Position numbers and translations under genes: made by a program
Shown here: one piece after another, positions 28,118 through 28,195 of the stretch
Numbering within the stretch: the first letter of the stretch is position 1
Layout of the letters: the number at the start of each line of letters is the position of its first letter
The notes under the pieces: generated by a model
What the model was told of the DNA's origin: nothing
The model's database searches: none
Seen by the model: only the letters and a program-made list of their open reading frames with translations
IMG/VR virus record: IMGVR_UViG_3300044630_002233
Coordinates: 7,787-71,786 of that record
Strand: one strand, 5' to 3'
DNA: 64,000 nt
Origin: a virus
Taxonomy: Duplodnaviria > Heunggongvirae > Uroviricota > Caudoviricetes

Positions 28118-28195
28118 TTATCTGTTTGCAACATACATTGTTACTTCGAAACCGAAACGCATTTCAGTAGCTGCTGGTTTTGTCCACATAATCAT
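28118..28195 (-). CDS. pqqA: PqqA-like peptide (25 aa; candidate pyrroloquinoline-quinone precursor peptide)
   Basis: Hand translation gives [25 protein letters not shown]. The PqqA consensus is MW(T/K)KPA-x4-R-x-G-x-EVT-x-Y-x3-R, with conserved Glu and Tyr spaced E-x3-Y. A strong RBS, AAGGAG, lies 5 nt upstream, and a terminator hairpin follows directly downstream. The gene is below the 60-aa cutoff of the ORF track. Confidence 0.6.
   Translation of the reverse strand: [25 protein letters not shown]

Follow-up and report, generated by a model that had tools for sequence, protein, structure and literature searches.

The stretch of DNA analysed here (64,000 nucleotides, positions 7,787 to 71,786 of the IMG/VR virus record IMGVR_UViG_3300044630_002233; hereafter the window) belongs to a T4-like (Kyanoviridae-type) myovirus, and its replication module carries an unannotated minus-strand open reading frame (ORF) that, judged by its sequence, is a genuine pqqA, the gene for the precursor peptide of pyrroloquinoline quinone (PQQ). 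The ORF is present at 28118..28195 with the translation given in an initial annotation of this DNA, 25 codons as first read, and that annotation had placed it in the PqqA family. When the hidden Markov models (HMMs) named there were run, the peptide scored 42.0 bits (E 8e-11) against Pfam PF08042 (PqqA; gathering cut-off 21.1) and 42.6 bits against TIGR02107 (the equivalog 'PQQ precursor peptide PqqA'; cut-off 20), twice the curated cut-off in both cases, so that membership of the family was upheld. The in-frame ATG at 28195, which yields the 25-amino-acid version, lies two codons 5' of a second ATG at 28189. Homologue lengths and the spacing of the Shine-Dalgarno motif point to the shorter coding sequence (28118..28189, minus strand), which comprises 23 codons and a TAA stop (28118..28120). 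The Shine-Dalgarno motif AAGGAG was found on the same strand at 28198..28203, as the initial annotation had claimed, but the spacing of 5 nt to the ATG given there did not hold; the motif is 2 nt from the ATG at 28195 and 8 nt from that at 28189. Every listed viral homologue (131/131) has a Shine-Dalgarno motif, in most cases 6-8 nt ahead of the ATG whose next codon is Trp. Because homologues are 23 amino acids long and mostly use this spacing, translation most likely starts at 28189, which would give a product of the family standard length. In this 23-amino-acid peptide, Glu15 and Tyr19 are the cross-link residues, spaced E-x3-Y, and bacterial PqqA shares its length, the motif WTKP...RFGFEVTMY and the Glu-x3-Tyr spacing.

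The gene is followed by its own terminator, a GC-stem and T-run claimed initially and confirmed by folding at 28031..28061 (z = -5.3). About 60 nt past the stop codon, an 11-bp G+C-rich stem with a UUCG loop (GAGAAACCCAC-UUCG-GUGGGUUUUUC, 28036..28061, minus strand) runs into a T-rich tail that extends to 28031, and the 106-nt stretch downstream of pqqA folds at -33 kcal/mol. A simple terminator scan of the region did not list this hairpin. Furthermore, terminator-like hairpins were found within 130 nt downstream of pqqA at 75 of 129 viral loci, compared to 4 in shuffled controls.

An ORF this short, which gene callers pass over, might be thought to have arisen by chance or from an assembly chimera with host DNA. 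However, the HMM scores (E-value about 1e-10) are far above chance for short ORFs of a 64-kb window, which argues against a chance ORF, and the identical sequence with identical phage neighbours occurs on independent assemblies. The same gene order and an identical Hsp20 protein were found on four independent Joint Genome Institute metagenome contigs, where gene callers had also passed over pqqA; in the sole one of the four that reaches pqqA (L243), the gene is identical at the DNA level. We therefore regard chance or chimera as effectively refuted. As expected for an auxiliary metabolic gene, pqqA lies in a bona fide phage genome with phage genes on both sides.

The initial annotation had seen no pqqBCDE-like genes, and this was borne out for the window ORFs tested. 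The CxxxCxxC motif of radical S-adenosylmethionine (radical-SAM) enzymes was absent from minus-strand window ORFs of at least 50 amino acids, and tblastn with PqqB, PqqC, PqqD and PqqE of four Methylophilaceae operons gave no match (E <= 1e-3) in the window or in 120 viral loci. In addition, when 50 window proteins (all but about 26 mostly small ORFs) were scanned with Pfam, no family related to PQQ or to quinoproteins and no methanol dehydrogenase came up. A position directly upstream of pqqB-pqqE, which is a feature of the PqqA family, was found neither in the window nor in the 120 viral loci. This missing linkage is not disqualifying, because most Methylophilaceae pqqA copies are also orphan (90 of the 114 assessable), like the window copy. 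Radical-SAM ORFs near viral pqqA in two loci were considered as PqqE and rejected, as both are B12-binding class-B enzymes. The first, on L072 (IMGVR_UViG_3300028275_000480, 96 kb; region 2772..4419, which includes pqqA), is a 501-amino-acid B12-binding ORF (class B methyltransferase-like) 70 nt past pqqA on the same strand, an arrangement found once among the examined loci; the second, on L023, is 3 kb from pqqA on the opposite strand.

The peptide variant provides a clue to the host. A scan of bacteria, limited to one genome per species, for the variant EMR[FY]GFE[VI]TMY gave at least 120 loci. Titles were available for 80 of them, and 51 of these named the family or its genera and groups (Methylophilus, Methylotenera, Methylobacillus, Methylovorus, Novimethylophilus, Ca. 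Methylopumilus and Methylophilaceae/Methylophilales), while the remaining titles were mostly coarse labels, e.g. Betaproteobacteria or Burkholderiales. Residues 1-20 of the 23-amino-acid window peptide are identical to the commonest bacterial peptide, the NCBI entry 'MULTISPECIES: PqqA [Methylophilaceae]', which is also the commonest viral peptide among the matches listed. The C-terminal tail reads VANR in the window and VMNK or VCNR in host PqqA, and the exact window peptide was absent from a collection of 15 billion proteins. The same peptides occur in the 24 listed bacterial copies that are linked to pqqB and in the 90 that are orphan, and complete pqqABCDE operons are present in Methylophilaceae genomes (e.g. 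L202, L123 and L213). Previous work showed that these genomes contain 3-12 pqqA copies but a single pqqBCDE(FG) (Beck et al., 2014; PMC4109929); thus, the hosts themselves already multiply pqqA. The closest sampled bacterial pqqA genes, from Ca. Methylopumilus and Methylotenera, share 90% nucleotide identity with the window copy. The predicted host is a Methylophilaceae methylotroph, with genus and habitat not settled by a 90% match, and the methylotroph host guessed in the initial annotation is supported by this variant. The Methylophilaceae variant and the complete operons also supply the host pathway that an auxiliary metabolic gene presupposes, the host of this particular phage being a predicted one.

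To explore how widely viruses carry pqqA, two pattern scans of IMG/VR were performed, each of which gave at least 120 loci; the second pattern constrained residues 1-14 only. At least 120 IMG/VR contigs of several phage lineages carry the gene. The longest ORFs on the listed contigs are of phage hallmark types (DnaB-type helicases, SU10-type and P22-type portals, T4-type portal and capsid proteins, terminases, gp44, RecA/UvsX and ligase), indicating that these contigs are viral and belong to several lineages. Conservation of the Glu and Tyr positions in phage homologues had been proposed as a check on the PqqA assignment, and both residues were kept in 120/120 ORFs listed in the second scan, all of 23 amino acids. 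Elsewhere the listed viral peptides vary, with V, I or C at position 16, M or L at position 18 and a variable tail, and WTTP replaces WTKP in some copies. The 131 viral copies represent 118 distinct DNA sequences, in which the proportion of synonymous differences (pS) was 0.655 and that of nonsynonymous differences (pN) 0.117, giving a dN/dS of about 0.08, with the search patterns themselves accounting for part of the low pN. Positions 17 and 19, which were free in the second pattern, were invariant over 4 and 2 codons, respectively. These substitution patterns demonstrate that viral pqqA is under purifying selection and is kept in phage lineages.

Cultured phages of methylotrophs also carry the gene. 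A tblastn search of GenBank phages found pqqA in Melnitz (4 records), Venkman, MEP301, MEP401, MEP402, P19250A and a Manatee Spring podovirus; each of the six cultured methylophages returned has the gene, unannotated in every case. The Melnitz peptide (76135-76209; L001) has 24 amino acids, and those of P19250A (KX815270.1, 28085-28153; L344), Venkman (L343), MEP301 (L345) and MEP402 (L346) have 23; these five genes were read directly and are intact, each with a Shine-Dalgarno motif and Glu-x3-Tyr. The peptide of the Manatee Spring podovirus (MW202481) was also read directly, and that of MEP401 is reported from its tblastn match alone. In Melnitz (MelnitzEXVC044M_152) and in MW202481, a 'hypothetical protein' is annotated over pqqA on the opposite strand, and PHROGs contains no family for the PqqA peptide. 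The cultured methylophages, of which Melnitz, Venkman, MEP301 and MEP401/402 infect OM43 and P19250A infects LD28, resemble the window phage in their intact PqqA of 23-24 amino acids but belong to other lineages (a pelagimyophage-like myovirus, podoviruses and Zobellviridae) and carry the gene at other genomic positions. 'Acinetobacter phage MD-2021a' was considered as a phage of a non-methylotroph with pqqA and was rejected, as it is a bacterial contig with fur, ppk and pqqBCDE. L262 (CAKLQF020000010.1) and CAKLQH020000055.1 are bacterial chromosome contigs filed as phage, and their pqqA matches are host genes.

Within the T4-like clade, about 15 diverged IMG/VR contigs share the order gp45-gp44-gp62-regA-pqqA-hsp20-gp43 with the window, at 50-72% identity in gp44 and 66-88% identity in RegA. 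To avoid retrieval bias, 80 phage loci (L263-L342) were collected by RegA alone. Intact pqqA was found 110-420 nt past regA in 16 of these loci, all of which have at least 77% RegA identity and keep the Glu and Tyr residues. The other loci gave no pqqA match above 20 bits and no degraded copies, and many loci of 82-88% RegA identity were among those that lack pqqA. In an alignment, the upstream ORF of the pqqA-less relatives is followed directly by the conserved hsp20 leader. Across these loci, pqqA behaves as a clean presence/absence cassette, either intact or absent, a pattern that may follow host range, in the sense of whether the host is a methylotroph. A weak tblastn match in L282, a 174-kb relative, was considered as a decayed pqqA and rejected, because the alignment is to the conserved hsp20 leader that is shared with pqqA-less phages.

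Patchy presence among close relatives, together with the compact, self-contained cassette and its different positions in different phage lineages, would also fit a selfish mobile element or a recent capture of host DNA, in either case neutral for the phage. However, the peptide is conserved despite nearly saturated synonymous sites, synteny extends to T4-like phages as diverged as those described above, the distribution is bimodal with no pseudogenes seen, and no sampled bacterial copy exceeds 90% nucleotide identity to the window gene. Neutral carriage is thus highly improbable in our view. The idea that phage pqqA serves as an attP-like homology patch was likewise rejected, given the full-length ORF, the synonymous divergence and the T4-like lytic-type genome.

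All genes of the window lie on the minus strand, and those around pqqA form a T4-like replication module. Upstream are the gp45 sliding clamp (30751-31413), the gp44 clamp loader (29431-30426), a 109-amino-acid protein of no assigned family (29094-29423), gp62 (28715-29101) and, as the immediate neighbour, the RegA translational repressor (28299-28715; Pfam PF01818, 166 bits). Downstream, the neighbour of pqqA is a small heat-shock protein of the Hsp20 family (27328-27948; Pfam PF00011), followed by two small proteins of no assigned family (26613-27132), an Rv2179c-like exonuclease (25992-26546) and the gp43 DNA polymerase (23502-25991). Elsewhere in the window are gp23, gp20, gp17, gp18, UvsW, UvsX, UvsY, a gp41-type helicase, gp46/47-like proteins and a gp55-like sigma factor. 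The gp43 polymerase is only about 56% identical to that of the closest GenBank phage, megablast of the pqqA region against GenBank phages found no DNA-level relative, and the G+C content of the window is about 38%. The window also encodes a 437-amino-acid protein with a Tet/JBP 2OG-Fe(II) dioxygenase domain (18941..20254; PF12851, 82.7 bits), which suggests DNA base modification in the source phage. Further genes on this strand encode a 2OG-Fe(II) oxygenase (301..879), a ferritin-like protein (7904..8350), a Band_7/SPFH protein (31596..32396) and an AAA_5/CbbQ_C ATPase (CobS/MoxR-like; 33968..35143).

Several further signals, all on the minus strand, surround the gene. Between regA and pqqA, a hairpin with a T-run (CTAATGA-ttt-TCATTAG, 28253..28279), conserved in the pqqA-carrying relatives L268, L271, L274, L275, L279, L284 and L291, probably ends the upstream regA transcription unit. 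Closer to pqqA, an AT-rich box (TATAATTA, 28232..28239) precedes a hairpin (ATACGGA-taatatt-TCCGTAT, 28212..28232) just upstream of the ribosome-binding site. Relatives have a similar box and hairpin at the same place, where the hairpin sequence differs and the structure is kept (GTCCtctatGGAC, GTCCAataatGGAC and GTAGtaagtcGCTAC); together, the two elements (28212..28239) could be a candidate promoter or a 5' stabilising structure. Between the stop codon and the terminator lies a nested hairpin (28074..28107) with the inner stem GCUCGA-aagu-UUGGGC (28084..28099), overlapped by a 20-codon micro-ORF (28072..28134) that ends in LESL[GS]DCV*. IMG/VR matches to this element were found only 19-50 nt downstream of pqqA (15/15); besides the window, it is present in L040, L271, L284 and L347-L358. 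All 5 distinct sequences keep the pairing of its 6-bp hairpin, with compensatory changes at two pairs, a covariation that is not significant (n=5), and in the relative L352 the micro-ORF has no ATG; the element may be either a coding micro-ORF or an RNA hairpin. Directly past the pqqA terminator, an exact T4-late-promoter-like TATAAATA (28026..28033) lies ahead of the hsp20 leader, which is conserved and contains a hairpin. The gene for the gp55-like sigma factor is at 41377..41907.

In bacteria, PqqD binds PqqA and the radical-SAM enzyme PqqE cross-links the Glu and Tyr of the peptide, after which PQQ is completed by peptidases, PqqB and PqqC. Each PQQ uses up one PqqA peptide, and every newly made methanol dehydrogenase of the PQQ-dependent type (XoxF/MxaF) requires one PQQ; in OM43, xoxF is the most transcribed gene (PMC5120137). 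The medium published for OM43 supplies 1 nM PQQ. We consider it likely that the pqqA of the window is an auxiliary metabolic gene that supplies this consumed precursor to the enzymes of a Methylophilaceae host. This role, proposed in the initial annotation, is the most parsimonious one that we can infer from an orphan gene of the host variant in a T4-like module. The phage would contribute the substrate peptide only, via a compact cassette that lies between regA and hsp20 and consists of a strong ribosome-binding site, a 69-nt ORF and an intrinsic terminator. The phage copy would be amplified with the replicating genome and expressed in infection, and its peptide would be processed by PqqD, PqqE, PqqB, PqqC and peptidases of the host, such that the precursor could stay available even if host transcription declines during infection. 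Because one PqqA is used per PQQ and one PQQ per methanol dehydrogenase, an extra copy could sustain the cofactor supply; by keeping or raising it, the gene would secure energy from methanol oxidation while the phage replicates.

A gene that is ready for overexpression, with a strong ribosome-binding site, a presumed high copy number from replicating phage DNA and no accompanying enzymes, might instead encode a decoy or takeover peptide that binds or titrates host PqqD, PqqE or a regulator to shut or redirect PQQ synthesis. Many viral peptides, however, are identical to functional host PqqA, including operon-linked copies, and an identical peptide is a substrate; moreover, the cross-link residues are invariant although a decoy would not need them. 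We consider a decoy very unlikely. It is somewhat less improbable, although still unlikely, that PQQ is made but that its benefit is not methanol oxidation (other quinoproteins, an antioxidant or a released growth factor), or that it serves a methanol dehydrogenase encoded elsewhere by the phage. The ferritin-like gene and Hsp20 hint at stress management, Coutinho et al. (2020; PMC7678222) found a viral methanol dehydrogenase in a virus of this type, and only 64 kb of the genome are visible. On the other hand, the viral copies are overwhelmingly of the Methylophilaceae variant, the dominant quinoprotein of those hosts is methanol dehydrogenase, and no such dehydrogenase was found among the window ORFs scanned.

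Other points weigh against a role as auxiliary metabolic gene for host methanol oxidation. Many close RegA relatives lack pqqA, so the gene is dispensable for this phage type as such. A sigma-70-type promoter scan found none beside pqqA, which leaves no convincing promoter and makes the AT-rich box a suggestive candidate at most. The host is deduced from the peptide variant and the G+C content alone, and expression, processing and benefit to the phage are likewise predictions from sequence. A limitation of PQQ or of methanol dehydrogenase activity by the PqqA supply on the time scale of an infection is assumed rather than established. In addition, pqqB-E or a methanol dehydrogenase could lie outside the 64 kb seen, in which case the peptide would be part of a larger phage set and not the sole contribution.

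The initial annotation implied that pqqA was new to T4-like phages, which is not supported, since the same gene, phage type and interpretation were published in 2020. Coutinho et al. (2020; PMC7678222) described PqqA and a viral methanol dehydrogenase in T4-like Lake Baikal viruses of 35% G+C with Methylophilaceae as the predicted host, and read them as auxiliary metabolic genes; viral pqqA is also included in a 2026 survey (PMC13188868). The window gene is thus a further example of a published phenomenon. Judged by its description, the Lake Baikal population VP_266 (PMC7678222) resembles the window phage in the gene, the T4-like type, the predicted host family, a similar G+C content (35% vs about 38%) and the auxiliary-metabolic-gene reading, but differs in also encoding a methanol dehydrogenase, which was not found in the 64-kb window. 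According to PMC7678222, none of these auxiliary metabolic genes is present in P19250A, which is at odds with the pqqA read in the P19250A sequence. What appears to be unreported in the searchable literature is the breadth of viral pqqA (at least 120 viral contigs in several lineages), its presence in every cultured methylophage returned and the anatomy of the cassette. In contrast to bacterial pqqA, the window copy resides in a lytic-type T4-like phage between regA and hsp20. A functional analogy without homology is offered by cyanophages, which carry psbA for the fast-turnover D1 protein; in both cases the phage brings a copy of the host energy component that is consumed or turned over fastest and leaves the rest to the host machinery. 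However, psbA encodes a full protein subunit, whereas pqqA encodes a sacrificial peptide substrate of a cofactor pathway.

The distribution raises a broader proposal, that pqqA is a lineage-independent hallmark of Methylophilaceae phages, carried, as a self-contained cassette for high expression, by at least five phage groups that are unrelated to one another (T4-like phages, Melnitz-type myoviruses, SU10/Zobellviridae-type podoviruses, P22-type portal phages and Venkman/P19250A/MEP301-type phages), and we give it an even chance of being correct. If true, it would mean that PQQ and methanol-dehydrogenase function in infected cells is limited by the precursor peptide and not by the biosynthetic enzymes, and pqqA would offer a simple sequence marker from which to predict that an uncultured virus has a methylotroph host. 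The gene has been systematically overlooked, even in published isolate genomes, because it is too short for gene callers and has no PHROG family; a simple pqqA search could flag methylotroph phages in viromes, and the cultured OM43 and LD28 phage-host pairs make the auxiliary-gene hypothesis testable. With OM43 in the sea and LD28 in lakes, the Methylophilaceae rank among the major consumers of one-carbon compounds, methanol included, and they have a PQQ-dependent methanol dehydrogenase. Phage-borne pqqA points to the step of host energy metabolism that may be worth supporting during infection, namely the supply of a consumable peptide rather than of enzymes.

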